Shown here piece after piece: positions 18,236 through 45,252 of a DNA stretch of 64,000 nucleotides. The stretch lies in the IMG/VR virus record IMGVR_UViG_3300013121_000046; one strand, 5' to 3'. Origin of the DNA: a virus. Taxonomy: Duplodnaviria; Caudoviricetes. Under the pieces are notes generated by a model, which was not told where the DNA came from, did no database searches, and saw nothing but the letters and a program-made list of their open reading frames with translations. Made by a program: the position numbers and the translations under genes. Every line of letters starts with the position of its first letter. Position 1 is the stretch's first letter.

Positions 18236-18456
18236 CGCATTGAATACCGCTACTCTTATATACCCAAAAATTTGTATCCTAGAGGTAATTCTAGTCAAAT
18301 ACCAGAAATAAAGTTCTATCCAACATTAACCGGAGACTCTAAAGTACCCCAAATAAACCAGTTAGGGTATGTCTTGGGATTTGCCCCTTCCCTGGAAAAC
18401 CAAATCCCCCAAATGTGGTAGTCCGGGTCCCAGAAAAATTCAAGAACCATAAGCTG
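18236..18456. repeat. dispersed ~215-bp duplication, copy A (promoter + 3' end of a YS-DL gene)
   Basis: Near-identical to 26301-26514. Confidence 0.9.
18259..18270 (-). promoter_or_regulatory. recurrent promoter motif TTTTTGGGTATA
   Basis: Motif copy upstream of 17355-18230. Confidence 0.65.
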
Positions 18457-18585
18457 TAAAGATGGGGAGATCCCTGGATAAGTACCTGTCCCATTCTTAT
18501 AAGCCCGAGGCCAATAGCTAAAAGTAAGCCCTGGGAACATTTTCTCAAGAAAATTCTGTATATGCTTGACCGAGTACATATGCAA
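18316..18585 (-). CDS. YS-DL family small protein
   Basis: MYSVKHIQNFLEKM...PNWFIWG. Confidence 0.75.
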   Translation of the reverse strand: MHMYSVKHIQNFLEKMFPGLTFSYWPRAYKNGTGTYPGISPSLQLMVLEFFWDPDYHIWGIWFSREGANPKTYPNWFIWGTLESPVNVG

Positions 18586-18651
18586 TACAATCCCACAATA
18601 ACCAGCATTGAATAATATTGGGGTCCCCCCATGCCAACTCCCTTGCCTATT

Positions 18652-18999
18652 TTAAGCTGCTGGGGCTGGATCAAAAGGATCCAATTCCTGGGCATCCTGA
18701 AGTGGAGCCGGAACATATTTGGGGGCCGGAACCCATTTTCTCTTCCAAGGGAGGCACTTTGGCTCCTCTGCATTAATATCCTCTCCCTTGGCTGCCTCCT
18801 TTAGGCGAAGCTCAAGCTCCTCGACCCGTACCTCCAAGTCATGCAATCGCACAGCCTGAGCCTCATCCCTGGCTGTAGCTGCCCCGGCTTCTGCCTCAAG
18901 GGCTCGCACCCGGCACTGCCAAGCTTCTGAAAGCTCTATACCGCGAAAAGCAAACAAAAGCGAAGCTAAACCCAATACAAACTGCAAGAACATAGACAT
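18652..18999 (-). CDS. membrane-anchored coiled-coil protein
   Basis: N-terminal hydrophobic helix followed by heptads; GAGGAGG RBS. Confidence 0.7.
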   Translation of the reverse strand: MSMFLQFVLGLASLLFAFRGIELSEAWQCRVRALEAEAGAATARDEAQAVRLHDLEVRVEELELRLKEAAKGEDINAEEPKCLPWKRKWVPAPKYVPAPLQDAQELDPFDPAPAA

Positions 19000-19005
19000 A
19001 CCTCC

Positions 19006-19287
19006 TCAGAGATTAAGACCAGACACATTGTATCCGCAGACCCTCAGAATTCTCTTGTTGGTGTTAAAGCTTTCCCAGACTCTGGTATAGTTATACCAAG
19101 TAAATATTTTAAGGTCGGGATCATTAGCCTCCCCATAGGCAAGAATAAAGCCTAAAAACCGTATCTCCCGACCTTGGGAATCCCGGTAATTTTGACCATT
19201 GTTAGTGGCAAAAAACACCGTTGGATTACCGTAAGCCGTCTCCCCTAACTTTTCTAGTAGCTTTTTTACCCCCTCCTTTGAGTACAT
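19006..19287 (-). CDS. YS-DL family small protein
   Basis: MYSKEGVKKLLEKL. Confidence 0.75.
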   Translation of the reverse strand: MYSKEGVKKLLEKLGETAYGNPTVFFATNNGQNYRDSQGREIRFLGFILAYGEANDPDLKIFTWYNYTRVWESFNTNKRILRVCGYNVSGLNL

Positions 19288-19303
19288 CTCAGCTATTCCC
19301 TAC

Positions 19304-19594
19304 TCAGACGGGGGTAAACTTCCGCCAAATTTTCCGTAGGTTTGACTCTATATCGATAAGACCCTTCTGGATGGGGGGGTCAGGTATATACTTAAGCGGA
19401 GGGAGATAGAGTGGAACATAATAAAAATACCACACTTTGTTCGATGCTAAACGTAGGACCAAACTCCCCGTAAAAGCTTCCGAAAGCACGATCTTCATTA
19501 TGCCGTCACTGTCATAACTCATACCCATTGTATACACAGCGGAACTACTGATCTTATCAATAATTCTGTACAGGTCATTCAGTGAGTATTTCAT
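19304..19594 (-). CDS. YS-DL family small protein
   Basis: MKYSLNDLYRIIDKI. Confidence 0.75.
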   Translation of the reverse strand: MKYSLNDLYRIIDKISSSAVYTMGMSYDSDGIMKIVLSEAFTGSLVLRLASNKVWYFYYVPLYLPPLKYIPDPPIQKGLIDIESNLRKIWRKFTPV

Positions 19595-19595
19595 A

Positions 19596-19671
19596 GTTAC
19601 GCCCCTACAATAATACCCCGACACCCTAAGTTTTTTACAAGAGCCTATATGTCTTCGAGGGAATACTTCAT
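19596..19671 (-). pseudogene. truncated YS-DL family remnant
   Basis: MKYSLEDI*ALVKNLG. Confidence 0.55.
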
Positions 19672-19687
19672 GTCAACATCTATAACA

Positions 19688-24054: not shown

Positions 24055-24354
24055 TCAAAATTGATAATACTCCATGCTATACTTAAACCACTCCGGGAGT
24101 CGTTTTCTAAGCTTATCTATTCTCAAATTAGCCTCAGGATACCCGGGAATCATCCCAAAACACCAATAAGTACCATTAAAAATTAGGCCTGATCCATAAT
24201 AAATATTCAACGGACCAAAAAAATCAACGCACAAATTAGGCCCGTAGTCTTTGTGAATATCCACAAAGACCAATCCAACCTTACTCAATACGCTAGCTAA
24301 ATACTCTACGGAATATAGGTCCTTTTGAGAATGGAGAAGATTACTAGCCATCAA
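24055..24354 (-). CDS. YS-DL family small protein
   Basis: LYSVEYLASVLSKV...PEWFKYSM. Confidence 0.75.
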   Translation of the reverse strand: MMASNLLHSQKDLYSVEYLASVLSKVGLVFVDIHKDYGPNLCVDFFGPLNIYYGSGLIFNGTYWCFGMIPGYPEANLRIDKLRKRLPEWFKYSMEYYQF

Positions 24355-24374
24355 ATTAGAAAGCCTTAGTTACA

Positions 24375-24656
24375 CTAAAGACCTGTTAAAACCCATTCGG
24401 GAAAAATCTCCCTTATTCCATAGTCGCCCACCCAATGACCTATTCCATAGGAGCCCACCCAACGACCTACAGCAGTGTGCCTAACGACAGTTGACCCAAC
24501 CAGGCTATATATCCCGTTCTGCATCTGAAAATTCATTACTTCATACCCACCTATAACGTTAATTGGCTGATTACCTGAAGTCCCTAAATACACAGGAACC
24601 CTTGCGAGCTTCCGCCAAATACGACTCAAATCTTTCCGAGAGTAAAAACTCCTCAT
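24375..24656 (-). CDS. YS-DL family small protein
   Basis: FYSRKDLSRIWRKL...PEWVLTGL. Confidence 0.8.
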   Translation of the reverse strand: MRSFYSRKDLSRIWRKLARVPVYLGTSGNQPINVIGGYEVMNFQMQNGIYSLVGSTVVRHTAVGRWVGSYGIGHWVGDYGIREIFPEWVLTGL

Positions 24657-24782
24657 TTGGAATCTCGATCTACAGCCACATTAGAAATAGACCAGTGAGA
24701 GGCTCATGTAAAGTTTGGCACCTAAGATCTTCTGAGTCATTAGACTCTGAAGTAACATCCATGCGAGCCATCAGATTGAAAA

Positions 24783-25052
24783 TCAATTATAGTATTGCAG
24801 GCTAACTACAAGCCAAGTGGGGAGAAGCTCATCTGTTATTCCATAGTATAGTATCCAGAAACCATCAGAAGTATGCCTAGCGAACGTTATCCCGGTATAA
24901 CCACATTCCCCACTCTTAATGGGAAACTTAAAGGAAACCTCATATCCATCATAGTTAATTGGCACCCATAGATACACCGAATTATTTATCAGCTTTCGCC
25001 AAACACAAGTTAAATCTTTCTGAGAATAGAAACTCCTCATTTGGAATCTCAA
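24783..25052 (-). CDS. YS-DL family small protein
   Basis: FYSQKDLTCVWRKL...PTWLVVSL. Confidence 0.8.
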   Translation of the reverse strand: MRFQMRSFYSQKDLTCVWRKLINNSVYLWVPINYDGYEVSFKFPIKSGECGYTGITFARHTSDGFWILYYGITDELLPTWLVVSLQYYN

Positions 25053-25297
25053 TCTACTGCCACACTCACAGCCCAGTCGCGGCTATCAACCCAGTCACGG
25101 CTATAATAATCATGAAACATAGACCAACGCGGTCTCTTCAAAGTACTCGGAGAGCAAGATAGTAAGACCCGAAAGATTCCAGGGAAATGAATGTTTACTA
25201 TTAGAGCCTTTCCCGGTATGATACGATAACGTACAAACCCATTATTTGCATCAACCATTTTCTTTGCGAGGCGAACTAAATCCTTTCCGGGATACAT
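25049..25297 (-). CDS. YS-DL family small protein
   Basis: MYPGKDLVRLAKKM. Confidence 0.75.
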   Translation of the reverse strand: MYPGKDLVRLAKKMVDANNGFVRYRIIPGKALIVNIHFPGIFRVLLSCSPSTLKRPRWSMFHDYYSRDWVDSRDWAVSVAVD

Positions 25298-25554
25298 CAG
25301 TACGACTCCGCCCTAGGCAAACTCTCCCAAAACCAAGTCCTAACATGCAAGGGTTTCTTTGTACTATTAAGTACAGACAAGGACCAAAGTCCTGATTTGG
25401 ATACATAGAGGATGAGGTAACCTGGAGAACCCATCAAATAAGTACGGGTACTAAAGCTTAGCCTTCCTAACTGGAAAAATTCCGTATGACCAAATCCGCA
25501 CTTCAGGAAGACTTTATTGAGAGATTCAAAAGAATATCTACGCGGTGAGACCAC
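25297..25554 (-). CDS. YS-DL family small protein (tandem duplicate of 25605-25853)
   Basis: RYSFESLNKVFLKC...TWFWESL. Confidence 0.8.
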   Translation of the reverse strand: MVSPRRYSFESLNKVFLKCGFGHTEFFQLGRLSFSTRTYLMGSPGYLILYVSKSGLWSLSVLNSTKKPLHVRTWFWESLPRAESY

Positions 25555-25604
25555 GATTCATACCTCTCTAAATCCTTTCCAGAATACATCAATACGACTC
25601 CGCC

Positions 25605-25853
25605 CTACACCCTAGGCAAACTTTCCCAAAACCAAACCCTAACATGCTCAGGTCTCTCTGTAGTATTAAGTAAACCCAAGAACCAAAGGCCTGACTTGGA
25701 CACAAAGAGGGTGATGTAACCTGGAGAACCCATCAAATAAGTACGGGTACTAAATCTTGGCCTTCTTAACTGAAAAAATTCCGTATGACCAAATCCGCAC
25801 TTCAGGAGGAATTTATTGAGGGATTCAAAAGAATATCTACGCGGTAAGACCAC
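25605..25853 (-). CDS. YS-DL family small protein (tandem duplicate of 25297-25554)
   Basis: RYSFESLNKFLLKC...VWFWESL. Confidence 0.8.
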   Translation of the reverse strand: MVLPRRYSFESLNKFLLKCGFGHTEFFQLRRPRFSTRTYLMGSPGYITLFVSKSGLWFLGLLNTTERPEHVRVWFWESLPRV

Positions 25854-25968
25854 GATTCAACCCCCGCTACTTCTATTCACCAAACAGCCCGCAACACCGC
25901 CATCTGTAAACCGGAGTGGTTCTGCAAGATATCTGCTACGCATAGCCCTTTTCCTCTCTGACTAACAC

Positions 25969-26042
25969 TGGGACTGTCGGGGCTCGAACCCGAGACCTAC
26001 GGATTAAAAGTCCGTTGCTCTATCCAACTGAGCTACAGTCCC
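25969..26042 (-). tRNA. tRNA-Lys(TTT)
   Basis: GGGACTGTAGCTCAGTTGGATAGAGCAACGGACTTTTAATCCGTAGGTCTCGGGTTCGAGCCCCGACAGTCCCA. Confidence 0.95.
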
Positions 26043-26053
26043 GGATATAAATA

Positions 26054-26064
26054 TATACCCTAAA
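26054..26064 (-). promoter_or_regulatory. promoter motif TTTAGGGTATA directly upstream of tRNA-Lys
   Basis: Motif ends about 11 nt before the tRNA 5' end. Confidence 0.65.
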
Positions 26065-26105
26065 GCCAGGGTAGCTACTGCGTAAAAAATCTACCCTGGC
26101 TTTAG
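26060..26105 (-). terminator. 15-bp inverted repeat overlapping the promoter motif
   Basis: CTAAAGCCAGGGTAG / CTACCCTGGCTTTAG. Confidence 0.55.
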
Positions 26106-26300
26106 TCCCCCCCCCAGTGAGTCCTACTCTGGAACATCAATCTCTGGCTCTACGCCAGAGTCATTCCTTGACTCCCCGTAAGCACAATTCAGACTACCGC
26201 AGCAAGGACAAATCTCACCGCCTCTGGCGTAATAACAGTCTTCGCAATTGCAGTATTGGTCATGGGCATAGTCCATTGTCTTCTCCTAATAATCTCGCAG

Positions 26301-26514
26301 CGCATTGAATACCGCTACTCTTATATACCCAAAAATTTATATCCTAGAGGTAATTCTAGTCAAATACCAGAAATAAATTTCTGTCCAACATTAACCAGAG
26401 ACTCTAAAGTACCCCAAATAAACCAGTTGGAGTATGCCTTGGGATTTGCCTGGAAAACCAAACCCCCCCAAGGTAGTAGTCCGGGTCCAAAAAAATTCAA
26501 CAAGCATAAACTGT
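26301..26514. repeat. dispersed ~215-bp duplication, copy B (gene part decayed)
   Basis: Near-identical to 18236-18456; includes the promoter motif at 26324-26335. Confidence 0.9.
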
Positions 26515-26558
26515 CTCGATACGATACTTAAGTCTGTTAGTAATTTTCGTCGAGATCA

Positions 26559-26813
26559 CTAACCTAACCCACACCAAAACCAGTGCGGAACCAAATCTCG
26601 CACTTTTTGATTGGTACGGCCCGTAGAGATATACCAAAACCTCTGTGCGTCACATCGGGCTTTATAGTATGCTAAACACCCAATTAACCTCCCATTACAC
26701 GTCAGGTACAAACTTAAACCTAGAAAGTCGTTGTGAAGAGACACACTCTGTACACCCTTTCTCAGTACCTTTTTCGCTATCTTTTCTAGGTCTTTATTTG
26801 AATACTTATCCAT
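26559..26813 (-). CDS. YS-DL family small protein
   Basis: MDKYSNKDLEKIAKKV...PHWFWCGL. Confidence 0.8.
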   Translation of the reverse strand: MDKYSNKDLEKIAKKVLRKGVQSVSLHNDFLGLSLYLTCNGRLIGCLAYYKARCDAQRFWYISTGRTNQKVRDLVPHWFWCGLG

Positions 26814-26827
26814 AACCCTACTCCATA

Positions 26828-27133
26828 TCACACTAACAGTAATTCTAATTGAAACCAACTCGGAGCTTTTACTCTCGAAGCCATCCCCCTTTGACTATAC
26901 ACAACCGCTCGCGTTCCCGAATACCAGAGGCCATTTGTCCATTGTGCCACTTGGAAGGTAACTCTTAACCTGTTACTCTTCCGAAAATTCTGGTTAGGTA
27001 AAACATAATCTACAAATAATACTCCACCTAACCCTATTCCGGGTGTAACCTCGTGTCTGATAAGAACTTTATTATCGAGACTTTTTCGCAAGAGTTTCTT
27101 TAAGTCCCTATCCGAATACCTCCCCATGAACAA
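26828..27133 (-). CDS. YS-DL family small protein
   Basis: GRYSDRDLKKLLRKS...PSWFQLEL. Confidence 0.8.
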   Translation of the reverse strand: MFMGRYSDRDLKKLLRKSLDNKVLIRHEVTPGIGLGGVLFVDYVLPNQNFRKSNRLRVTFQVAQWTNGLWYSGTRAVVYSQRGMASRVKAPSWFQLELLLV

Positions 27134-27190
27134 CTCCTTTATTATTCAGAATCTTACCTACATCCTCGGTAGCATAGAGTCCTCTGTCTC

Positions 27191-27529
27191 TCACTTCATC
27201 CTGCTCTCCATATCCTCTCTACAGAGGAGCAAAGACTGCTTCGCCCAAAATGGCATAAAAGTGTCATCCCACTCCACCTCAGATACACCTAAATCTGGCC
27301 GAAGCCACACATTATTCTCCCAAACTAAACCAGCCTTATGCGTCCCATAATGATTATATGCACCCAATGCTGGCACGCTTGGTTGTCTAATTCGGTTCAG
27401 TACATTTTGTGCAGAAGGCCAATACCTAAAGGAGTGCATCTGAATTGAGGCACTGGATGAATCCCCCAAACTGATAGAGTCATAGAATCTGCACACATCC
27501 CTAAATGAGTAGAGATGCTCCGAAGCCAT
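27191..27529 (-). CDS. YS-DL family small protein
   Basis: LYSFRDVCRFY...PFWAKQSL. Confidence 0.75.
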   Translation of the reverse strand: MASEHLYSFRDVCRFYDSISLGDSSSASIQMHSFRYWPSAQNVLNRIRQPSVPALGAYNHYGTHKAGLVWENNVWLRPDLGVSEVEWDDTFMPFWAKQSLLLCREDMESRMK

Positions 27530-27573
27530 TTTTCCCCTTCACCTCTAGGACAAAACTCCAGAATTTTCTCAGC

Positions 27574-27843
27574 TTATAAAAATGCTTCCAGAGACTGCAT
27601 CACCCACGGAAAAGCCTTGGTCTGCATAAAATATCTCCAATTCCATTGACAACCATACTTCCAGATGCCGTCCTCATAAAAAATATTGAATCTATACCCG
27701 TACGGACTAGAGGACTCATTATACCCCAAAATAATACTCCCTTTGTGCGGATACGTGAACAAAGGACGACCCGATTCTTGAAATCCCATTGCACAAGTTA
27801 TTTTGAGTAAATCTTTTATGGAATAGGCTGTATTTCTCCGCAT
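27574..27843 (-). CDS. YS-DL family small protein
   Basis: AYSIKDLLKI...PWVMQSL. Confidence 0.75.
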   Translation of the reverse strand: MRRNTAYSIKDLLKITCAMGFQESGRPLFTYPHKGSIILGYNESSSPYGYRFNIFYEDGIWKYGCQWNWRYFMQTKAFPWVMQSLEAFL

Positions 27844-28180: not shown

Positions 28181-28182
28181 AA

Positions 28183-35827: not shown

Positions 35828-36145
35828 TTAAGAACGTGTCGGGTCATTACGCAATCGAGGGATGCTTGGGACAGCCCACAAGTGAAATATCCCATCAGAT
35901 TCCCACAGAAATTGCCGACCTCTGAGCCCTTCCAAATAACTAGTAAACACCCATTGCCCTCGAATGAAGTATAACATCAAAATATCTTCAGAAAAATTGT
36001 CCCTTACCCTAGAAAAGACATACCCTATTATATAAGAAGATGTATCAGAGGATCTACCATAGTAGGTACCGAGGTTCCTTATGGTTACCCCAGGCTTCCT
36101 AATGCTTCGCATCAGTTTCAGCACATCTATTTCAGAGTATCGCAT
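35828..36145 (-). CDS. YS-DL family small protein
   Basis: MRYSEIDVLKLMRSI. Confidence 0.8.
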   Translation of the reverse strand: MRYSEIDVLKLMRSIRKPGVTIRNLGTYYGRSSDTSSYIIGYVFSRVRDNFSEDILMLYFIRGQWVFTSYLEGLRGRQFLWESDGIFHLWAVPSIPRLRNDPTRS

Positions 36146-36201
36146 CTATCAGTAAGCCTTCTCAATTTTGGATTTTACCGTAATCAGTAAGTGCCCAATA
36201 A

Positions 36202-36501
36202 TCAAATTGGGTTAAGTGTCCAATAGTCAAAATAATTTAAGCTTTGCTTAAACCACTCAGGAATACATTTTCGATCCAGCCGGTATGTCTTTTTAGCCCA
36301 AAGAGTTCCAGATACCCAGTAAGCTCCACCAAAAAGTAAAAAAGCGGTATCCGGTTTTACCGTTGTCGCTATACTCCATAACCAAGGGGAACCTGGAAGA
36401 TTATCAAAATCTCCCACTGAGATTTGTGCAAGACTCTCAGAACTTTGGACACGGCTCTTTTGTAGAAGCCCATTCAAATCTCGAAAAGAGTAGTATCGCA
36501 C
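36202..36501 (-). CDS. YS-DL family small protein
   Basis: YYSFRDLNGLLQKS...PEWFKQSL. Confidence 0.8.
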   Translation of the reverse strand: MRYYSFRDLNGLLQKSRVQSSESLAQISVGDFDNLPGSPWLWSIATTVKPDTAFLLFGGAYWVSGTLWAKKTYRLDRKCIPEWFKQSLNYFDYWTLNPI

Positions 36502-36518
36502 TCATTATTCCTAGCTAA

Positions 36519-36788
36519 TTACGATTCCAGACTATCCACAAACCATTTAGGGATATCCACAGACTCTAAGTACAGCCCAAGGGTACGACAGTATATTCCC
36601 GCCAGTCCACAGATTGGCTCCAAGTAGATTTCTAAACTCTTACCATCACGGTAGCGAATAAGCTTCCATCTAATATCCTGCTTAAGCTTCTTTGCACTCC
36701 ACATTCCGGAAAAACCTCCTAGCGAATCTAAGTTAAAGATTTTTTCAAGGAGTCTACTCCTATCTGAATTAGAATATTTGATGTACAT
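36519..36788 (-). CDS. YS-DL family small protein
   Basis: IKYSNSDRSRLLEKI...PKWFVDSL. Confidence 0.8.
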   Translation of the reverse strand: MYIKYSNSDRSRLLEKIFNLDSLGGFSGMWSAKKLKQDIRWKLIRYRDGKSLEIYLEPICGLAGIYCRTLGLYLESVDIPKWFVDSLES

Positions 36789-36823
36789 AACCCCCGGGGA
36801 TTGGGTGTTATTCATTGTATCCC

Positions 36824-37087
36824 TTAAATTTCACTCTCTATGGGAAATAGAGCCAAACTTTTTTTTATCCACTTGGCATACCGACTTGACCGACGACACC
36901 TGTACATGGGCAACCATTGCTTGTACTTTGTGTCCCAAGCCAAGAACAGGTCTCCTCGCCCTTTACCGACCAGCTTCTCCGGCCCTAGCAACAGGGTCTC
37001 AGGGGGCATTGGGATGATCTTGCTCCGCTGCTTAGCAATTCGGAACACAAATCTCTTAACATCTGTGAATTGATACCAAGGCTGCAT
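36824..37087 (-). CDS. YS-DL family small protein
   Basis: WYQFTDVKRFVFRI...KWIKKSL. Confidence 0.7.
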   Translation of the reverse strand: MQPWYQFTDVKRFVFRIAKQRSKIIPMPPETLLLGPEKLVGKGRGDLFLAWDTKYKQWLPMYRCRRSSRYAKWIKKSLALFPIESEI

Positions 37088-37117
37088 AAGCCCACCCCCC
37101 TTATCGAGGTATAGTAC

Positions 37118-37966
37118 CTACGGAGTATGGATGGCTCGAAACATAGGTCGAGTAGGCAGATTCTTCAAAATGGCCAATCCAGCCCTTTCTTGAGCAATAT
37201 CAACGTATTCACGGACGATATCAGCACCAGCCGCCCTCCGATTATGAAGCAAAGCCGCACAGAGGGCAGAGCCTACCCCCATATAAGGATCTAGAAGAAG
37301 TTCCCCGGGCCTAGTCATGGATAGTACTAATCTCTCGACAAGCTCTACCGGAAACTGGCATGGATGCTCTGTTTTCTCTATGTGATTATGCTTCACATTA
37401 GGAATGATCCAAACATCCCCAGGGTTCTTGCCCAATGGGTTGCAAGATAGTTCCCCCTTCCGAGGACCTTTGAAATACTTCTTACCTGGATACTTCTGAG
37501 GAACCCTTACAGGGTCTAAGTTAAAATAATACGAGTCAGACTTGGTAAACCAGAGAATAGTTTCGTACCTTCCAGAGAATCTCTTTGCGCAATGTAAGCC
37601 GTGTTCAAAATGCCACACTATCCGATTCCTAAGCTTCATACCCATATTATGTATGATCGGATGGAGGGCTATATCTAAAGGCAATATCTCACCCTTTGAA
37701 ACTAACATATTTCCTACTTGCCAGCATAAGTGTCCCGTGGGTGATAAAACCCTAACACATTCCCTTAAAACATCTGTTTGACGACGTAGGTACTCGCTCA
37801 AGTCAGAAACCACCTCATACCTTTTTCCTAAATTATAGGGCGGTGAAGTAACCACTAACTGAACTTCATTATCCGGTATATCCTTTAACAGGTCTAAACC
37901 CTCGCCAAAATGTAGATTAACTTTGGCCTCCCTAACATACTTCCTTGCTGCTTCTTCTTGTGACAT
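37118..37966 (-). CDS. orphan site-specific DNA methyltransferase (beta-class N4-C/N6-A, SPPY)
   Basis: VVTSPPYN (motif IV) precedes HPCQFP and LLDPYMGVGS (motif I); GGAGAGG RBS. Confidence 0.92.
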   Translation of the reverse strand: MSQEEAARKYVREAKVNLHFGEGLDLLKDIPDNEVQLVVTSPPYNLGKRYEVVSDLSEYLRRQTDVLRECVRVLSPTGHLCWQVGNMLVSKGEILPLDIALHPIIHNMGMKLRNRIVWHFEHGLHCAKRFSGRYETILWFTKSDSYYFNLDPVRVPQKYPGKKYFKGPRKGELSCNPLGKNPGDVWIIPNVKHNHIEKTEHPCQFPVELVERLVLSMTRPGELLLDPYMGVGSALCAALLHNRRAAGADIVREYVDIAQERAGLAILKNLPTRPMFRAIHTP

Positions 37967-38124
37967 ATCTAAACCTCTCCCGTATGATCGCTGACAGTAG
38001 GAAATGTACATTGCCCCTGGAGAGTGTTCCCTTTTCCAAGAGGGTCAACCCTCGACAAGTCAAAAAATATATATATTCTGCTCCGGATCCTCGCTAGTTA
38101 CACCCCAGAAGACTAACCTGCGAT

Positions 38125-38463
38125 CTACGTATTGTAGGCTCTGAGAATAAGCCAAAGTCTTCTTAATGTATTTACTAACGAATCTCTGTAGGTCCTTCTT
38201 GGGGTACAGCATAAATGTTTCAGACTCTCCTGATCCAAAGGTACAAGCCCTGATAACATAGAAGCATCACCTTGATCGTACAACCAAATTCTCCAGGGCT
38301 TAAGAATATACTCTGGATGATAGTATATTAACGTGTGTCTTGATTTATTAGGTACAAAACAAAAATAGTAAAGAGCACTAGACGCATCCCCCCTATAAAG
38401 GCCACAATGACCAAACATCTTCGCCATTAAATTCAAAATATCTTTCGGGGGATAATATCGCAT
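38125..38463 (-). CDS. YS-DL family small protein
   Basis: YYPPKDILNLMAKM. Confidence 0.75.
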   Translation of the reverse strand: MRYYPPKDILNLMAKMFGHCGLYRGDASSALYYFCFVPNKSRHTLIYYHPEYILKPWRIWLYDQGDASMLSGLVPLDQESLKHLCCTPRRTYRDSLVNTLRRLWLILRAYNT

Positions 38464-38487
38464 TTCTCTTATTGGCACTTAAAAATA

Positions 38488-38727
38488 CTAAACCAAAAAC
38501 CAAATAAGCCTTTCAGAGGTCTTTCCGACTCCCAAATCCGGCGACTCTTTGTATCCCCAAACAATGCGGAAGAAAGACCCCTTACACTCACCGAATACAG
38601 TAGCCGTAGCAGTAAACACTAATTTTAACGTTGGCGGTAATGCAAACGGATAGCTCTTAAAATTAGTCAAAGACATTCCAAAGTACTTACTTACAAGCAA
38701 TTTTACATCTTCACTTTGGTAGAACAT
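38488..38727 (-). CDS. YS-DL family small protein
   Basis: MFYQSEDVKLLVSKY. Confidence 0.75.
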   Translation of the reverse strand: MFYQSEDVKLLVSKYFGMSLTNFKSYPFALPPTLKLVFTATATVFGECKGSFFRIVWGYKESPDLGVGKTSERLIWFLV

Positions 38728-38987
38728 AAGTACCCCAGAATGCTGCCACTCAAAACCTCAAATTCTTTCAGACCTTCCCCTCCCAGTCTAGTATACCACA
38801 ACCCATCCTCGGCTTTTATTAGTTTATCCAAACCTGGCAATTGATATAAAAAAATGGTCTGCCTACTCTGCACCGTAAAATAACACATAATCGCAAAATT
38901 ATCAAATTTCGGAGCACCCCTCTCTACCTGATAGCCTAAAAGTTTCTCAAGCAATTGCCTAATAATTTTTGGTGGGAAGTATTTCAT
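38703..38987 (-). CDS. YS-DL family small protein
   Basis: KYFPPKIIRQLLEKL. Confidence 0.75.
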   Translation of the reverse strand: MKYFPPKIIRQLLEKLLGYQVERGAPKFDNFAIMCYFTVQSRQTIFLYQLPGLDKLIKAEDGLWYTRLGGEGLKEFEVLSGSILGYLCSTKVKM

Positions 38988-39244
38988 ATGGGGTACTGCA
39001 AAACAGGAGAGTCGATTAATGGTCCCGAATATCGCAGCTTTCTCCTAAGATATACCTTAGCAAAATATGTGGTGCTAATAACTACTCCCTGTTGCTTAGG
39101 TAATTTATAAAATACATTACCCCAGTAGACATACGGCTCACACTGCTCATCCTGAAGCGTAATGTAATTCCCCTTTTGCTTCAAGCACAAAAGGGGAGCC
39201 CAAAGTTTACTCGTAAGCCTAAAAACATCTTCTAAAGAGTACAT
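38984..39244 (-). CDS. YS-DL family, recent tandem copy 1
   Basis: MYSLEDVFRLTSKLWAPL. Confidence 0.85.
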   Translation of the reverse strand: MYSLEDVFRLTSKLWAPLLCLKQKGNYITLQDEQCEPYVYWGNVFYKLPKQQGVVISTTYFAKVYLRRKLRYSGPLIDSPVLQYPI

Positions 39245-39368
39245 CTCACCAAACCCGAGAAGGTTTACCTAATCTAGTATTACTCTTTTTAATAGCACTA
39301 GAAGCTCGCCAAATCTGTATCGCCTCTCTATTCCAAGCAGTAGGTTTTAGTTCTTTAGCTGTGCTGCT

Positions 39369-39644
39369 TCATAGAGGGTACCGCAAAACAGGAGAGAAGG
39401 TTGATGATCCCTGATCGTGCAGCTTTTCCCTAAGTTTGATTCTAGCCCAAAGTGAGACACCCATAACTAAATTAATACTATTCTGTCTCCCCTTAAAACA
39501 CCTAGAAGGGAAGTAAAAGATATTACCGCAGTAGCGACCCAGATCATCCTGAAGCCTAATATTACCTGTCATATTCCTCTTTGAACACAAAATGGGAGCC
39601 CAAAGTTTACCTGTAAGCCTAAGAAGATCTTCTGAAGAGTACAT
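39369..39644 (-). CDS. YS-DL family, recent tandem copy 2
   Basis: MYSSEDLLRLTGKLWAPI. Confidence 0.85.
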   Translation of the reverse strand: MYSSEDLLRLTGKLWAPILCSKRNMTGNIRLQDDLGRYCGNIFYFPSRCFKGRQNSINLVMGVSLWARIKLREKLHDQGSSTFSPVLRYPL

Positions 39645-39750
39645 CTCACCAAACCCGAGAGGGCCTACCTAATCTAAACTACGAAGGGTTGATTGCAATC
39701 TCCGCCTCTCTATTCCAAGCAGTAGGTTTCAGTTCTTTAGCTGTGCTGCT

Positions 39751-40026
39751 TCATAGAGGGTACTGCAAAACAGGAGAGAAAGTTGATGACCCCTGATCGT
39801 GCAGCTTGTCCCTAAGATATAGCCTAGCCGAAAATGAGACACCCATAACTAAATTAATACTATTCGGTCTCCTCTTAAAACACCTAGAAGGGACGTAAAA
39901 GATATTACCGCAGTAGCCACCCCGCTCATCCTGAAGCCTAATATTACCTGTCGTACTCCTCCTTGAGCACACAAGAGGAGCCCAAAGTTTACTCGTAAGC
40001 CTAAGAATATCTTCTGGAGAGTACAT
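39751..40026 (-). CDS. YS-DL family, recent tandem copy 3
   Basis: MYSPEDILRLTSKLWAPL. Confidence 0.85.
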   Translation of the reverse strand: MYSPEDILRLTSKLWAPLVCSRRSTTGNIRLQDERGGYCGNIFYVPSRCFKRRPNSINLVMGVSFSARLYLRDKLHDQGSSTFSPVLQYPL

Positions 40027-40134
40027 ATCACCAAACCCGAGAGGGTCTACCTAATCTACTAACTACGAAGGGTTAATTGCAATCTCCGTCTCTCTATTCC
40101 AAGCAGTAGATTTCAGTTCTTTAGCTGTGCTGCT

Positions 40135-40386
40135 TCATATAGGGTACTGCAAAACAGGAGAGAAAGTTGATGACCCCTGCTTTCGCAGCTTTTCCCTAAG
40201 ATATGTCCTAGCCAAATATGTGGTTTTAATAACTACTCCCCATTGCCCAGGTATTATATAATATACATCACCGCAATAGCCACCCCGCTCATCCTGAAGC
40301 ATAATGTAATTATCCTTTTGCTTCAAGCACACAAGAGGAGCCCAAAGTTTACCCGTAAGCCTAATAATATCTTCTGAAGAGTACAT
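40135..40386 (-). CDS. YS-DL family, recent tandem copy 4 (mosaic)
   Basis: MYSSEDIIRLTGKLWAPL. Confidence 0.85.
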   Translation of the reverse strand: MYSSEDIIRLTGKLWAPLVCLKQKDNYIMLQDERGGYCGDVYYIIPGQWGVVIKTTYLARTYLREKLRKQGSSTFSPVLQYPI

Positions 40387-40492
40387 CTCACCAAACCCGA
40401 GAGGACCTACCTAATCTAAACTACGAAGGGCTAATTGCAATCTCCGTCTCTCTATTCCAAGCAGTAGATTTCAGTTCTTTAGCTGCGCTGCT

Positions 40493-40753
40493 TCATATGG
40501 GGTACTGCAAAACAGGAGGGTCGGTTAATGATCCCGAATCTCGCAGCTTTCTCCTAAGATATGCCTTAGCCGAATATGTGGTGCTAATAACTACTCCATG
40601 TTGCCCAGGTAATATAAAAGATACATTACCCCAGTAGCCATACTGCTCACCCCACTTACCCTGAAGCCTAATGCAATTCTTACTTTGCTTCAAGCACACA
40701 AGAGGAGCCCAAAGTTTACCCGTAAGCCTAAGAAGATCTTCTGGAGAGTACAT
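40493..40753 (-). CDS. YS-DL family, recent tandem copy 5
   Basis: MYSPEDLLRLTGKLWAPL. Confidence 0.85.
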   Translation of the reverse strand: MYSPEDLLRLTGKLWAPLVCLKQSKNCIRLQGKWGEQYGYWGNVSFILPGQHGVVISTTYSAKAYLRRKLRDSGSLTDPPVLQYPI

Positions 40754-40754
40754 C

Positions 40755-41015
40755 TCACCAAACCCGAGAGGGTCTACCTAATCTAGTATTACTCTTTTTA
40801 ATCGCACTAGAAGCTCGCCAAATCTGTATCGCCTCTCGATTCCTTCTCCCTAAAATTTTATTTACGTAGGTAACCTGCTCATCCACCCGACCCCAAGTCA
40901 AAATCCCAAATTGGGTTCGTACTTGATAAATATCTTCCAACGTAATGTGCATCCAAACATCCATTCCAAATAATCTCTCAACGAGCGATGCTAAATTCTC
41001 CTTAGAGTAAAACAT
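40755..41015 (-). CDS. YS-DL family small protein
   Basis: MFYSKENLASLVERL. Confidence 0.75.
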   Translation of the reverse strand: MFYSKENLASLVERLFGMDVWMHITLEDIYQVRTQFGILTWGRVDEQVTYVNKILGRRNREAIQIWRASSAIKKSNTRLGRPSRVW

Positions 41016-41028
41016 CTCAAGCCTCTAT

Positions 41029-41307
41029 CTATCTGCGAGGGGATATCTTAAACTTACCGTTAGAGTACTTGAGTCTGAATTCCATGTTGAGAAAATATGC
41101 GGAATTTACGGGAACTCCCAGGGGGCGAATCGCAATCTCCACCTCTCTATTCCCGGCAGCAGATTTCAGTTCACTAGTAGCAGATAGCCTGAAATAGAAA
41201 TCATTTCTAAAATGCACTACAAAAGTCGGCTCATCCAATTCCCAATCTATCTCGGGGAAGAGTTTGGTAGCCAACTGCACCAGAGATATTAGCGAGTAAC
41301 CTACCAT
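41029..41307 (-). CDS. YS-DL family small protein
   Basis: GYSLISLVQLATKL. Confidence 0.75.
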   Translation of the reverse strand: MVGYSLISLVQLATKLFPEIDWELDEPTFVVHFRNDFYFRLSATSELKSAAGNREVEIAIRPLGVPVNSAYFLNMEFRLKYSNGKFKISPRR

Positions 41308-41394
41308 CCATCCTCCCAGCTAGTTTATTTAGCTGAGTACATAGATACTACCTCTGAGGGGGGGGTAACATCCCGGGCCCTTCGGCTATACAGA

Positions 41395-41406
41395 TATACC
41401 CTAAAA
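41395..41406 (-). promoter_or_regulatory. promoter motif TTTTAGGGTATA
   Basis: Motif copy inside the YS-DL array. Confidence 0.6.
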
Positions 41407-41449
41407 TAGTCGGAGAGGCGTCTAGATAATACCAGAAATAGGTATACGC

Positions 41450-41752
41450 CTACAGAGCATCCAAACGGGGAACATCCTGGGAGATCCCGCCCCCGAAATA
41501 GATTTTCCCACCAAAGAGAAGTATGTCAGAGAGCTTTCGCTTAGAGAAATCCCCTGGAGTCACTTCCCAGGTCGCCTGAGACCATTGGTATTGAAATCCA
41601 TTAGAGAATACCTGGTCCCCTCGGTAGCGGATAAAGCAAAGCCGATACTGATAGCCCTCCCTGTAGCTCGCTACCAACCAATCAACGTGCGGGTGTAAAA
41701 TCCGCATAAGTCTAATTAGATCAGAAAAGTTAAACCTCTGAAGAATTCCCAT
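41450..41752 (-). CDS. YS-DL family small protein
   Basis: RFNFSDLIRLMRIL. Confidence 0.7.
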   Translation of the reverse strand: MGILQRFNFSDLIRLMRILHPHVDWLVASYREGYQYRLCFIRYRGDQVFSNGFQYQWSQATWEVTPGDFSKRKLSDILLFGGKIYFGGGISQDVPRLDAL

Positions 41753-41786
41753 TAGGGGGTACCTGTCGGATACGCTGTTCCCAGGA

Positions 41787-42128
41787 TCAGCCTACTACTA
41801 GAGGCGACTCTTGACTAACTATACCCCTACCCATAAAGAGTCTTCCCTGGAATCTTGGAAAGGACTCCATTAACCCGATACGAAGAAACTGGAATCTTGG
41901 CGAGGACTCCATTAACCCGATACGAAGAGAAGAGAGATTCTTAGGTTCTACTTTTTCACACAACTGGTCAAATAACAGGTCTGCATCCAAGGGGTGCATG
42001 TTCCGATCTGCCTTTAGCAGCAGATACCCAGGGGAATTCTTATCGTACACAGCACACCAATCCCGTGAATCAGTTAACTTATTACACAAGTTAATCAGTG
42101 TGTCAAAATTATATCGAGTATAGGGCAT
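41787..42128 (-). CDS. YS-DL family small protein with internal 14-aa duplication
   Basis: TRYNFDTLINLCNKL; LRIGLMES(S/F)PRFQ occurs twice. Confidence 0.75.
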   Translation of the reverse strand: MPYTRYNFDTLINLCNKLTDSRDWCAVYDKNSPGYLLLKADRNMHPLDADLLFDQLCEKVEPKNLSSLRIGLMESSPRFQFLRIGLMESFPRFQGRLFMGRGIVSQESPLVVG

Positions 42129-42379
42129 TATACCGGTACAAAATTTGAATCGCTACCAACTGCGGGTCGAATAAAGACGCGATAATAGAAAATTAAATAA
42201 GCATTGATGAGTCTCTCATATCTCAGAACGTGAGTCCCCTCCCCTTGTGATACAAAAAATGTAGCCTGGGGATCGGCTAGGCGGAGTAGGAAATCAAAAA
42301 ATGTACTCTGTAATTTCTCCCTGGGGACTGAAAGCAAAGCATCAGCAAGTGGGTACAAGTCCTTTCGTTCATAGAGCAT
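42128..42379 (-). CDS. YS-DL family small protein
   Basis: MLYERKDLYPLADAL. Confidence 0.7.
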   Translation of the reverse strand: MLYERKDLYPLADALLSVPREKLQSTFFDFLLRLADPQATFFVSQGEGTHVLRYERLINAYLIFYYRVFIRPAVGSDSNFVPV

Positions 42380-42390
42380 GTTGATATTCC

Positions 42391-42735
42391 CTACTTCCAA
42401 AAGTCGGCCCAGAATTTTCTAAACTTACCTTTAGGGGAAGAGCATGACAAACGCTCAATCCCTGCCCCGTCTAAAAAGCTTGAGCATACCAAACCCTCAA
42501 TCCCTGCCCAATCCAAATCCAAAAAGCTTGGGCAGGGACCATTGGCCCACACCCTGAAAGATAACTGCCAAACTCTGTGTTTATATCTTTCATAAGACAC
42601 CCATCGCCAACTACGCCCGTAGCGCCCGACATAAATAAAGGAGTCTGCTTCCTCAGGTTCCAACCTATTAGGTTTTGGATTAGGGCAAAGCTTGAAGAAG
42701 AGGTTAACAATATCCTTTCTAGGGTAGTAGATCAT
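42391..42735 (-). CDS. YS-DL family small protein
   Basis: YYPRKDIVNLFFKLCP. Confidence 0.8.
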   Translation of the reverse strand: MIYYPRKDIVNLFFKLCPNPKPNRLEPEEADSFIYVGRYGRSWRWVSYERYKHRVWQLSFRVWANGPCPSFLDLDWAGIEGLVCSSFLDGAGIERLSCSSPKGKFRKFWADFWK

Positions 42736-42738
42736 ATC

Positions 42739-43101
42739 CTACTTTCTGATAGCCCTTTTGTGTTCTCTTCGGCTCCAAACAACTTTACGCATTGTCCGCA
42801 TCTCCTCAGATGTGTGATTCAAGTATAGTACCCCTAAGGAATCAAAGAACAAATTGACGCCTATGCCCGGACTCCTCTTATAGTCTGGACAAATTCTCCA
42901 AGTATGTGGCCTAAAACCCCCATAGAAAAACCACTTCATATATCCTAAAGGATAGTAAGGCGATCCATGTTTACGGATGTAGGTACTGAGATAATCCTGC
43001 ATATCATTATCAAACTTAAGGGCCTCCGGACCCTCCCAATAAGGATCCGGACAAAGTTTGAAGAAGAAACTAACGATATCTTTCTTAGAGTAGTGACCCA
43101 T
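42739..43101 (-). CDS. YS-DL family small protein
   Basis: HYSKKDIVSFFFKLCP. Confidence 0.8.
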   Translation of the reverse strand: MGHYSKKDIVSFFFKLCPDPYWEGPEALKFDNDMQDYLSTYIRKHGSPYYPLGYMKWFFYGGFRPHTWRICPDYKRSPGIGVNLFFDSLGVLYLNHTSEEMRTMRKVVWSRREHKRAIRK

Positions 43102-43104
43102 GAC

Positions 43105-43500
43105 TTACTTTATTTCTACTCCTGACATTTTAATAAAGGGGAACCTCGACCATTCCCCGTACTTCTTCCAAATCAAGGAATTCAATACCCAATCAGGGAT
43201 TGTATTCCAGGCCTCTTCTGTCGCCCTAAGAATCTCCCACCTAACAATCGTAGACAAATTACCATTAGCCAAAGGAGCCGGGGCAACTCGATATTCCAAA
43301 CAACAGGATGACCGGCCGTCCTCATTTACCAAAGAGGGTAAACCTAAAATAACACTTCCCGCATCCAACAAGGCCTTTCTATTAAAATAAAATGTTGTTC
43401 CACAGTTGGTCCAGCCTGTTGAAGTACCTGCTATAGTAGGATGCCAAGAGCCACCTAAGCACCCTCTAAGTAACGTTAACACGTCCGAGATTGAATACAC
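43105..43500 (-). CDS. YS-DL family small protein
   Basis: MYSISDVLTLLRGC...PDWVLNSL. Confidence 0.8.
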   Translation of the reverse strand: MYSISDVLTLLRGCLGGSWHPTIAGTSTGWTNCGTTFYFNRKALLDAGSVILGLPSLVNEDGRSSCCLEYRVAPAPLANGNLSTIVRWEILRATEEAWNTIPDWVLNSLIWKKYGEWSRFPFIKMSGVEIK

Positions 43501-43562
43501 TACTAATCCCTTTTATTTTCAGGATACCTTAACCTGTATCTTAACTTTATACTGAAAGAGGT

Positions 43563-43844
43563 CTACGACTTCAAACTTTTAAGTACCCAATCTGGTATAT
43601 GGTTAAACAACCCTTTGTAATGATACATAATGCCCCATACCCTAGATGGGCCTAATAAACAAAGCCCTAAGCCCGCGAGAAGCTGCCCCTGCCTTTCAAC
43701 CCCCGAAACAATCTGCCTATCACCCAAATAAAGCCTTCCCAGGTCATCCGCACTCCACTCACAAAGAACCACTCCTCGATTACATGCCGCTCGCATCTTG
43801 TGAAAGAGCCTCTGTAGGTCTCTACCAGAATAGAAAGAACTCAT
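43563..43844 (-). CDS. YS-DL family small protein
   Basis: FYSGRDLQRLFHKM...PDWVLKSL. Confidence 0.8.
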   Translation of the reverse strand: MSSFYSGRDLQRLFHKMRAACNRGVVLCEWSADDLGRLYLGDRQIVSGVERQGQLLAGLGLCLLGPSRVWGIMYHYKGLFNHIPDWVLKSLKS

Positions 43845-44008
43845 GGAACAACCCGTAATAATTATTTCCTAAACTACTTGAGGCATAAAAACCAAGGCCC
43901 TAAAAATTTTTCACCTACCCCAATAAGAGGTATAGGCAAGCCTAAATAGGCCAGATTAAGCCAAAAGTAGGCTTCTTTTAAGCTCCTATATATACACTCA
44001 TCGGAGTC

Positions 44009-44524
44009 TTAATAAATCGCCCAAACAACCATCCTCACTAGGTAATCTAGCTTGGGTGATTTACTCTGTATCTCCGAAAGATTCTCAATCTCTACACCGG
44101 ACTCAAATATCATATCCCTGCAAACCCGGTCAAAAACTAATTTTCTATTACCCCCCGGCATGAAGAGAAAATAGACTCGATATGTAATATTAAGTTTCCC
44201 CTCTGTGTATAACCAAAAGGAATCCCCCAGATAGAGCAAAATCATCTTAGTCCGTTCAGGACTACTAATATCCTTACTTAATAGCACCGGAATTGATACC
44301 TTTCTCCATACCAAACCATCTCCCAATTTATTAACCAGGGCCTGAAAATCCTTCGGATGATACTTAGCTCGTTTGGGTAGGAAATACTTGATCTTCACCT
44401 TAAAAAACACATAAGAACAGATCAAAATCAAGAAGATCAGGCATAAACCGCAAAGAAATGATCCTAAGAAAATTACGGAGACTTCCCCGAGAATATCGAG
44501 AAAATCATTCCCATAGTTAGCCAT
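44009..44524 (-). CDS. membrane-anchored YS-DL family protein
   Basis: N-terminal TM helix, then KYHPKDFQALVNKL. Confidence 0.7.
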   Translation of the reverse strand: MANYGNDFLDILGEVSVIFLGSFLCGLCLIFLILICSYVFFKVKIKYFLPKRAKYHPKDFQALVNKLGDGLVWRKVSIPVLLSKDISSPERTKMILLYLGDSFWLYTEGKLNITYRVYFLFMPGGNRKLVFDRVCRDMIFESGVEIENLSEIQSKSPKLDYLVRMVVWAIY

Positions 44525-44963
44525 GATTCACCAGGGCTATTGGTAGGGTACCAAGGATTCGGGATACTGACCCCAAAGGGCCGGTCAGCTTATCGCCCAT
44601 AAAAATTGGGTATCTGACCGAATTATTTACTATGTGGTTTCCGGAGAATTTAGGATAATCATATTCATGGGATTTTAACATCAACCCCGCCATAAGCCAA
44701 ACTGTAAGCTGAGTCTTACGGATAAAAGTAGACTGCATCCCGACCTCTACAAGTGTGTTCCCGTAAATCACTAAGGGCTCCATTAGGAGAGTATTAAATG
44801 GCTCTGAGCAGCAGTCCGAACCCCTTTTTATACTATCCCCCAACAAATAGTAAGCTTCTGCATTACGCCAACCACACCGCCAAGAATACTTTGGCAGCAG
44901 CTTAGAGATTAGCTGTATTTGGTCTTGAGTGGAGTACTTAATTACTGAAGTACATTGCGCCAT
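44517..44963 (-). CDS. YS-DL family protein
   Basis: IKYSTQDQIQLISKL. Confidence 0.75.
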   Translation of the reverse strand: MAQCTSVIKYSTQDQIQLISKLLPKYSWRCGWRNAEAYYLLGDSIKRGSDCCSEPFNTLLMEPLVIYGNTLVEVGMQSTFIRKTQLTVWLMAGLMLKSHEYDYPKFSGNHIVNNSVRYPIFMGDKLTGPLGSVSRILGTLPIALVNHG

Positions 44964-45252
44964 TTTTTATCCCTATCTTCCCAAGCTCACCTAAATCCTT
45001 ACTGCGTACATCTGCAAAATTATGTGAGTACCAAACTTGCCGACACCCCCGCCACTCAAACCCATGAATATTATTTTCATTTTTCGGATTAAGCTGATTC
45101 GTGTATACCAAAAGGACAATCCTAGACGAAAAAGATGTATGCCGGAAACACCCTCTAGTAAAAGAACAGTCGTCCTCAACTACCGCCCACTCATATCTCG
45201 GCCACAATTTATTCAAAAGTTCAAGCCGAGTCTTCACTGTATAGAATCGCAT
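44938..45252 (-). CDS. YS-DL family small protein (first gene of the array)
   Basis: RFYTVKTRLELLNKL; ATG lies 5 nt after the TATACA hexamer. Confidence 0.75.
   Translation of the reverse strand: MRFYTVKTRLELLNKLWPRYEWAVVEDDCSFTRGCFRHTSFSSRIVLLVYTNQLNPKNENNIHGFEWRGCRQVWYSHNFADVRSKDLGELGKIGIKNGAMYFSN

Follow-up and report, generated by a model that had tools for sequence, protein, structure and literature searches.

The window analysed here, a 64,000-nt stretch of the tailed-phage record IMGVR_UViG_3300013121_000046, carries an array of small genes that we refer to as the YS-DL family, after conserved residues close to the start of the encoded proteins. The array is a lineage-specific tandem expansion in a jumbo phage and consists of about 60 paralogs of one small α/β domain. 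The family is new among the libraries that were searched, while the phenomenon of tandem expansion is itself known from jumbo phages.

Extent of the array

The extent of the family was determined with a hidden Markov model (HMM) that was built from seed members and run for five iterations against all 1131 six-frame segments of the window (cut-off E<0.01). The model converged on 58 members, which lie without exception on the minus strand at 18.3-45.3 kb, and matched nothing on the plus strand (best E ~1) or outside this interval. Weaker open reading frames (ORFs) that carry the motifs, e.g. 27191-27529, 33363-33644, 38703-38987, 41029-42400 and 44517-44963, together with fragments raise the family total to ~64-68. 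The strict head pattern Y[SNPT]xx[DHN][LIVMF]xx[LIFMV]xxK occurs 38 times in the 64 kb, at 18.5-43.8 kb, and the tail pattern PxW[FVLIA]xx[SG][LIVF] 23 times, within 18.3-45.3 kb, in both cases on the minus strand; neither was found on the plus strand or in the remaining 37 kb of the window. Across 0.9 million six-frame residues of unrelated viral and metagenome DNA, the head was matched 5 times and the tail 7 times, corresponding to an enrichment in the array of ~480-fold and ~200-fold, respectively.

An original prediction for this stretch, made from the letters of the DNA alone, had counted ~64 co-oriented ORFs with a shared head, and both the number and the head are borne out; in the comparison with other DNA that it had named as a possible refutation, the motif is far commoner in the array than in unrelated six-frame background. 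It was also right that the array fills most of 24-45 kb (the listed members cover 71% of 24.06-45.25 kb) with outliers down to 18.3 kb, that a methyltransferase (37118-38011) and a tRNA (25969-26042) interrupt it, and that a candidate promoter of its own lies near 45260, where we find a promoter-like box (45259-45270). The genes are as small as it had stated (median 89 aa), but the overlaps of 1-4 nt that it had described as frequent are found at only ~5 junctions. Genes overlap at 11 junctions in all, the overlaps ranging from 1 to 26 nt; 19 junctions are spaced by 0-30 nt and the others are wider. The four outlying members are cut off from the main block by unrelated genes, an AAA ATPase among them, and the promoter-proximal group (41.0-42.4 and 44.0-45.25 kb) has a degenerate head in which the helix is followed by P-x-x-x-W. 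Within two members, 41787-42128 and 42391-42735, a stretch of 42 nt is duplicated in tandem (at 41847-41928 and 42440-42517, respectively), which gives an in-frame repeat of 14 residues. The coordinates of the array and of the features discussed below are collected in Table 1.

Table 1. Positions of the YS-DL array, its landmarks and selected neighbouring features in the window
Feature	Position	Strand	Remarks
Full extent of the YS-DL family	18316..45252	-	58 HMM-supported members and ~6-8 weaker members or fragments
Main array block	24055..45252	-	Family ORFs cover 71%; 54 of 58 HMM-supported members
Four outlying members	18316-18579, 19006-19287, 19304-19594, 19688-20053	-	
Representative member	31442..31714	-	90 aa; AlphaFold2, pLDDT 73
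Direct repeat D8	29581-29731 and 29912-30062	-	151 nt, 89% identity
Recent duplicate pair	25297..25853	-	78% aa / 88% nt identity
Head stub between the recent duplicates	25503-25589	-	28 aa; breakpoint inside the head of the next gene
D7 tail-only truncated copy and promoter box	26301..26503	-	95% identical to 18236-18385
Head stub, pseudogene remnant	30363..30413	-	16 codons
Youngest cluster, five copies	38984..40753	-	42-78% aa identity
Promoter-like box TTTAGGGTATAC	45259..45270	-	7 nt upstream of the first ATG (45252)
Long GC-rich hairpin and T-tract, terminator-like	45273..45312	-	Would close the upstream AAA+ operon; read from sequence
Internal promoter-like box TTTAGGGTATAT with TATTTCTGGTATT element upstream	41394..41405	-	142-nt gap between two array genes
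Composite promoter-like element, TATTTCTGGTATT ~25-30 nt upstream of TTTNGGGTATAT	41394-41440, 18258-18305, 26323-26370	-	
BCS1-like AAA+ ATPase	45892-47337	-	BCS1_N domain, N-terminal hydrophobic segment; directly upstream of the array
AAA ATPase	21740-22603	-	Between the outlying members and the main array
DUF6197 protein	20880-21299	-	
N6/N4 DNA methyltransferase	37118-38011	-	Non-family insert in the array; N6_N4_Mtase, E 7e-53
tRNA-Lys(UUU)	25969-26042	-	Non-family insert in the array; own promoter-like box 26053-26064

The ORFs as protein-coding genes

Several properties of the DNA identify the family ORFs as genuine protein-coding genes. With a codon-usage table trained on the other genes of the window, the annotated frame scored best of the six in 58 of 59 members. 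A core Shine-Dalgarno motif precedes 51% of the starts, compared with 21% of the ATGs in this region that are not member starts (odds ratio 4, p = 2e-6), and a G-rich peak is located at -14 to -9 relative to the member starts. The chance that a random stretch of 85 codons with the same composition would stay open is 0.004, and in the youngest five-copy cluster the indels within ORFs are all of 3, 9 or 21 nt. At the conserved sites, the choice among synonymous codons is free (Tyr TAC/TAT 31:22, Asp GAT/GAC 24:16, Lys AAG/AAA 28:15, and all six Leu codons), indicating that the head motif is kept at the level of the protein and not as a DNA or RNA element. An origin of the head motif at the RNA or DNA level can be dismissed on the same ground.

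Conserved positions and predicted fold

Conservation was counted by position in an HMM alignment of 54 members. The head is made up of Y (53/54), S (46/54), D (39/54), L/I/V (49/54), L (39/54) and K (45/54). The tail L-P-x-W-F-x-x-S/G-L is present in two thirds of the members; the original prediction had put P-x-W in about half, while the aligned count is 37 of 54, and among these 37 the Pro is conserved in 35 and the Trp in all. Its description of constant ends around a variable middle is correct as far as the ends are concerned, but it had overlooked a Trp in the middle of the protein, found in 47 of 50 members, that is just as conserved. The remainder of the core is largely unalignable, as claimed (median core identity 11%), and the proteins are indeed rich in aromatic residues (W 3.7 vs 1.9%, Y 6.0 vs 3.9%, F 5.4 vs 3.9%). 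They are mostly basic, with a median pI of 9.3 (41 of 59 above 9; 12 are acidic) and with K+R at 13.2% vs D+E at 8.8%.

Structures were predicted with AlphaFold2 from an alignment of the paralogs. Modelling of all members had been proposed; two divergent members were modelled, and both show the order helix, four strands, helix. The representative member 31442-31714, whose predicted local distance difference test (pLDDT) score is given in Table 1, has a helix at residues 4-14, four strands and short C-terminal helices. Member 40493-40753 (pLDDT 62), which represents the most divergent robust subfamily and is without PxWF, has a helix at residues 4-15, four strands and a helix at 60-72. The shared order of elements in two such divergent members argues for a single small domain and against two handles joined by a variable linker.

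Signals known to cap helices include the capping box, S/T-x-x-E/D, and the hydrophobic staple between N' and N4. The sequence Y-S-x-x-D-L fits such a helix-start signal, read as N'-Ncap-N1-N2-N3-N4, in which Ser would be the N-cap, Asp would occupy N3, and Tyr and Leu would form the staple; the conserved Ser directly precedes the first helix in both models. The L, L and K that follow are predicted to lie on one face of this helix. In the model of 31442-31714, the central Trp is part of strand 4 and the PxWF opens the last helix. With the conserved residues at the helix cap, in strand 4 and in the last helix, the constant parts are most simply seen as scaffold. The original prediction had proposed that the termini form a shared docking surface, a claim that is so far without support; in the models, these parts have the appearance of scaffold. 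The conserved Tyr, the two Trp and the Leu would form the hydrophobic core of this common scaffold, and the strands and loops in between would be free to diverge.

Growth and decay of the array

Neighbouring members are more similar in their cores than random pairs (0 of 2000 permutations, and 5 of 2000 when recent clusters were removed), which indicates local tandem duplication followed by divergence. Traces of the process are seen as direct repeats that span gene junctions, namely D4, D7, D8, D9 and D14. D8 takes in the final 24 codons of one gene and the opening 26 of the gene behind it; in its copy upstream of gene 29425-29658, the tail of gene 29989-30216 survives as a relic that is out of frame, and the cores that follow the D8 copies are saturated, with a synonymous divergence (dS) of ~1.3. 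D4 and D14 record that gene 25297-25554 was duplicated together with a few codons from the start of the gene that follows it. D7 (150 nt, 95%) reaches further, in that the tail of the terminal gene and the promoter box were copied over 8 kb, from 18.3 to 26.3 kb, where only a tail fragment of the copied gene is left.

The youngest cluster, with five copies, has conserved ends and conserved spacers of ~105 nt between the copies. A 55-nt element of these spacers recurs at 41123-41177 on the minus strand (84% identity), inside ORF 41029-41307, indicating that this ORF has grown into DNA that was once intergenic. The array contains at least seven truncated copies or stubs; together with the junction repeats, they amount to birth-and-death evolution via unequal recombination at or in the tail-head junction. 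New copies arise by local unequal recombination with breakpoints at or in this conserved junction, and some of them decay to stubs. The turnover that had been proposed for the array is well supported by the junction-spanning duplications, the truncated copies and the nonsynonymous excess in the youngest cores, described below.

Selection on the copies

Older pairs have a ratio of nonsynonymous to synonymous substitution rates (dN/dS) of 0.45-0.57. The ~58 diverged copies all keep the fold-defining residues, from which it follows that each copy is maintained. In the five-copy cluster, the ratio of nonsynonymous to synonymous differences per site (pN/pS) over whole genes is 0.9-4.4, and one pair, with 2 synonymous and 31 nonsynonymous changes, is significant by itself (uncorrected p = 0.014). 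In the two independent pairs of most recent origin, the variable middle contains 29 nonsynonymous and 0 synonymous differences, where ~20% synonymous differences are expected under neutrality (binomial estimate, P ~0.001); the counts are small and sequence has been exchanged in mosaic fashion between the cluster copies, and they are to be read with caution. The 29:0 excess supports diversifying selection on the core, which, on these substitution counts, is probably acting.

Promoter-like elements

The array begins directly behind a terminator-like hairpin that runs into the box TTTAGGGTATAC, so near to the first ATG that near-leaderless transcripts are suggested. With up to one mismatch, the same box is found before tRNA-Lys, tRNA-Phe and a non-coding RNA (ncRNA), in the 41.4-kb gap and before genes after the array. 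At three places it is part of a composite element (Table 1), and the downstream box stands alone at tRNA-Lys (26053), tRNA-Phe (54373) and the ncRNA of 49.1-49.9 kb (49113/49875). Sigma-70-like sites are not enriched in the array (20 and 22 found vs 28 and 27 expected), nor did terminator-like sites show significant enrichment there. Transcription of the array would proceed in a small number of long polycistronic units that start at GGGTATA(C/T) promoters specific to the phage.

Searches for related sequences and folds

The original prediction had described the family as undescribed, and HMM and library searches of the kind that it had outlined gave no homologue in any library searched. Pfam, PHROGs and PADLOC, used with individual members and with all 47, returned isolated sub-threshold matches only. 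A profile search of 5.8 billion clustered proteins retrieved the window's own proteins and nothing else, and an HMMER profile search of 1.84 billion protein representatives gave 16 of the window's own proteins and one other; only 16 of the 47 own members passed the threshold in the latter search, which indicates that a global profile search has limited power and could miss diverged relatives. The additional protein, of 386 aa, is repetitive and of low complexity and was taken as spurious. When two members were compared with 50,697 GenBank phage records by tblastn, no match was found at E<=1, and no sequence homology to the expanded families of phages G or 121Q was detected by Pfam/PHROG or by tblastn of the two members. 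The family HMM found no YS-DL member in 1.08 Mb around 98 homologues of the BCS1-like ATPase.

Structure-based searches were equally unproductive. Foldseek against the PDB gave a best E of 0.28, a structure search of BFVD a best E of 0.086, and a feature search of the ESM Atlas no usable match; the structure search of the ESM Atlas reached template modelling (TM) scores of at most 0.57, with inconsistent families. A wide fold search with VIA-align gave a best Z of 5.0, below the usual noise level. In a comparison with SUKH/SuFu there was no Pfam match, and the weak rows for the SUFU homologue 3k5j (Z 3.8) and EndoGI 3ism (Z 3.6) are within the noise of a list with a top Z of 5.0.

Comparison with known systems

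Tandem arrays of >30 similar genes are known from phages G and 121Q, for which tandem duplication was proposed as a route to genome expansion (Hua et al. 2017, PMC5646251), and phage G carries ~35 copies of a zinc ribbon (Iyer et al. 2021, PMC7824862). The YS-DL array resembles these expansions in the jumbo size of the genome, the dozens of co-oriented adjacent paralogs encoding small proteins, the origin by tandem duplication and the lack of an assigned function in both. It differs in that the family is unrelated, has neither the zinc-ribbon cysteines nor a Pfam match and, unlike the 'very similar genes' of those phages, consists of ~60 copies that are far more diverged, as the median core identity attests. 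The head and tail motifs, the breakpoints at junctions and the nonsynonymous excess in young copies are further features of the YS-DL array.

The closest functional analogy is to the internal proteins of T-even phages (IPI, IPII, IPIII and relatives), which are diverse and otherwise unrelated, share an N-terminal capsid-targeting sequence of 10-19 aa and include the counter-defence protein IPI* (Rao and Black 2010, PMC3012670). The YS-DL members are likewise small, basic and highly diverse, with a short conserved N-terminal sequence. Their bodies, however, are related to each other, with the central W, the PxW and the same predicted order of elements, and their copy number is ~20 times higher. 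A second comparison can be made with the PeSL cassettes of T4-type hyperplastic regions, mobile regulatory elements of an early promoter, strong and sigma-70-like, and a terminator stem-loop that flank small ORFs (Arbiol et al. 2010, PMC2839356). Both cases concern a region of small non-essential ORFs reshuffled via short conserved flanks. PeSLs are non-coding and separate unrelated ORFs, whereas the YS-DL element is the coding tail-head junction of paralogs; moreover, the YS-DL array has no enriched sigma-70 promoters or terminators, and many of its genes abut or overlap. In phage T4, amplification of tifA against toxIN is a case of adaptive amplification of a counter-defence gene (Srikant et al. 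2022, PMC9391042). Such 'genomic accordions' of poxviruses and T4, which arise in conflict with host defences, share with the YS-DL array that a viral gene is multiplied in tandem by recombination. The copies in an accordion are of recent date, nearly identical and transient, whereas those of the YS-DL array are of ancient origin, have diverged deeply and are each maintained in their own right.

Possible functions of the family

We give an about even chance to the explanation that the products form a repertoire of intracellular binders or inhibitors. Acting within the infected cell, each would bind or inhibit a different variable target in host defence or takeover, and the array would be a standing library kept by birth-and-death evolution. 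Several points weigh against this explanation. The binder or counter-defence role is itself purely inferred. The AlphaFold models are moderately confident and built on paralogs of one genome, and the basic charge of the proteins is equally compatible with nucleic-acid binding. Whole-gene pN/pS values in the youngest cluster are mostly ~1, with only one of 10 pairs individually significant (uncorrected); relaxed constraint explains part of the nonsynonymous signal, and the substitution counts could be skewed by mosaic recombination among the copies. Finally, no related phage was found that would reveal gain or loss between strains.

It is unlikely that the family consists of multiplied small nucleic-acid-binding proteins, i.e. 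regulators of transcription or RNA or proteins that coat DNA, as proposed for the zinc ribbons of phage G. The basic pI, the excess of K+R and the richness in aromatic residues are in keeping with such a role, as is the helix, sheet and helix arrangement common in small RNA- and DNA-binding domains, and roles as transcription factors or structural DNA-binding proteins were suggested for the phage G expansion (Iyer et al.). However, 12 members are acidic, there is no match to a nucleic-acid-binding family in Pfam or by fold, and the positive charge of the core is not conserved by position, with the exception of one Lys. A somewhat smaller likelihood is assigned to packaged and ejected internal proteins, for which the N-terminal helix would be a capsid-targeting signal similar to that of T-even phages and the bodies diverse injected anti-restriction proteins. 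The position of YS-DL at the extreme N-terminus (M-x(0-3)-Y-S) and the small size and basic charge of the members agree with this, but conservation extends beyond the N-terminus to the central W and the C-terminal PxWF, and the two divergent models share their order of elements. The T4 prohead protease cleaves at the motif L/I-x-E, which ends the capsid-targeting signal. No conserved acidic motif of the cleavage type follows the YS-DL helix: the columns past the conserved Lys hold L/I/M, L/G/W and G/A/P, without a conserved Glu. Sixty packaged species would be without precedent, and the array, which has a promoter of its own, is located in a neighbourhood of tRNAs and accessory genes, not of head genes.

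The adaptor library of the original prediction, in which both termini build one docking surface for a common hub (an AAA+ ATPase or a host protease) and the cores recruit targets, draws on a hypothetical analogy to F-box-type adaptors. It would account for constant ends around a variable middle, and it could look to the BCS1-like AAA+ directly upstream and to the second AAA ATPase between the outliers and the main block. We nonetheless hold it to be improbable, because the conserved residues are more simply explained as helix cap and aromatic core, the C-terminal motif is absent from one third of the members, the BCS1-like gene and the array have a terminator between them, and genes of the BCS1-like type are common in jumbo phages and giant viruses alike, with no YS-DL family at the 98 homologous loci. 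Nothing was found that ties the family to the AAA+ ATPases. Equally doubtful is a germline-encoded binder library with a common handle, the N-terminal helix plus the PxWF helix, for one phage or host hub and with ~60 faces for different targets; its hub would be, e.g., the adjoining membrane-anchored BCS1-like AAA+ translocase or a protease. There is an about equally slight chance that the array is functionless filler, in which duplication enlarged the genome for a larger capsid and the copies drift under relaxed selection (the ratchet model of Hua et al.). Whole-gene pN/pS of ~0.9-1.2 in most young pairs, the truncated copies or stubs and the proposal of genome growth by tandem duplication for phages G and 121Q would favor drift. 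Against it, ~58 copies at ~11% core identity are all still open where neutral drift would have closed them, and fold-defining residues are kept through synonymous codon change, with dN/dS well below one in the older pairs. Programmed hypermutation of the cores by a diversity-generating retroelement would also yield variable cores between constant ends, but it is scarcely credible: no reverse transcriptase domain was found among the larger window ORFs scanned, no template/variable repeat pair was found in the 64-kb window, and the substitutions in young copies are ordinary, 53-65% of them being transitions and about half of all substitutions involving A, with no adenine-specific bias. The ordinary spectrum and the lack of a reverse transcriptase among the scanned ORFs rule out such an element within the window.

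The phage and the surroundings of the array

The window comes from a contig of 236,349 bp, and the genome is thus of the jumbo size that applies to tailed phages of at least ~200 kb. All credible genes of the window are on the minus strand. It encodes 6 tRNAs and 1 transfer-messenger RNA (tmRNA), the BCS1-like AAA+ and two other AAA-type ATPases, and proteins that match phage families exclusively (phrog_7485, phrog_1250 and phrog_18067). When relatives were sought with the BCS1-like AAA+, the second AAA and a 1159-aa protein in IMG/VR, JGI metagenomes, GenBank phages and the collection of 5.8 billion proteins, the best identity was ~36%. By its gene content and these comparisons, the source is a jumbo phage without close relative. 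Homologues of the BCS1-like protein with ~30% identity are widespread and occur in jumbo phages of Caulobacter, Brevundimonas and Pseudomonas and in metagenome-assembled genomes of giant viruses; some of their records are labelled 'major head protein' or 'cell division protein'.

The DUF6197 protein and the AAA ATPase beyond the main block adjoin a pair of small acidic paralogs (20166-20438 and 20470-20781, minus strand) that are unrelated to the YS-DL family. The interval that separates the array from tRNA-Lys contains a 50-aa Cys-rich ORF (26124-26276, minus strand) with nine Cys, motifs such as CxC..C and CPCC..C, and its own promoter box upstream. A second tandem array at 2932-12179 (minus strand) comprises ~12-14 paralogs of ~205 aa each, without a Pfam match. 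It is followed by a phage-encoded NT5C-type 5'-deoxynucleotidase (12747-13331, minus strand, E 5e-12) and by an island of high G+C content (GC) at 13723-15700 (GC 0.61 vs ~0.43 in the surroundings), which contains a pentapeptide-repeat protein (13723-14484, E 1.5e-19) and may be a recent gain from a host. On the other side of the YS-DL array, the phage encodes an M28-family peptidase (49927-50637, minus strand, E 9e-16), and the tmRNA (57519-57879, minus strand; Rfam 130 bits), with the tag peptide AETFALAA, is located within a tRNA cluster.

Significance

Together with the array of ~200-aa paralogs, the YS-DL array means that this phage devotes ~15% of the contig to two orphan multigene families. 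The YS-DL array presents a single tiny domain in ~60 variants, a standing repertoire under selection in which the mechanism of birth is visible, and its pattern of turnover and diversifying signs is that expected for proteins in direct conflict with variable host factors. Should a common handle with many faces prove true after all, the library would be a phage analogue of F-box/adaptor or effector repertoires. If targets of the proteins are found, small binders or inhibitors could be drawn from the array as from a natural library, and it would serve as a model of how giant phages may gain both genome size and breadth of counter-defence by duplication rather than by gene capture.

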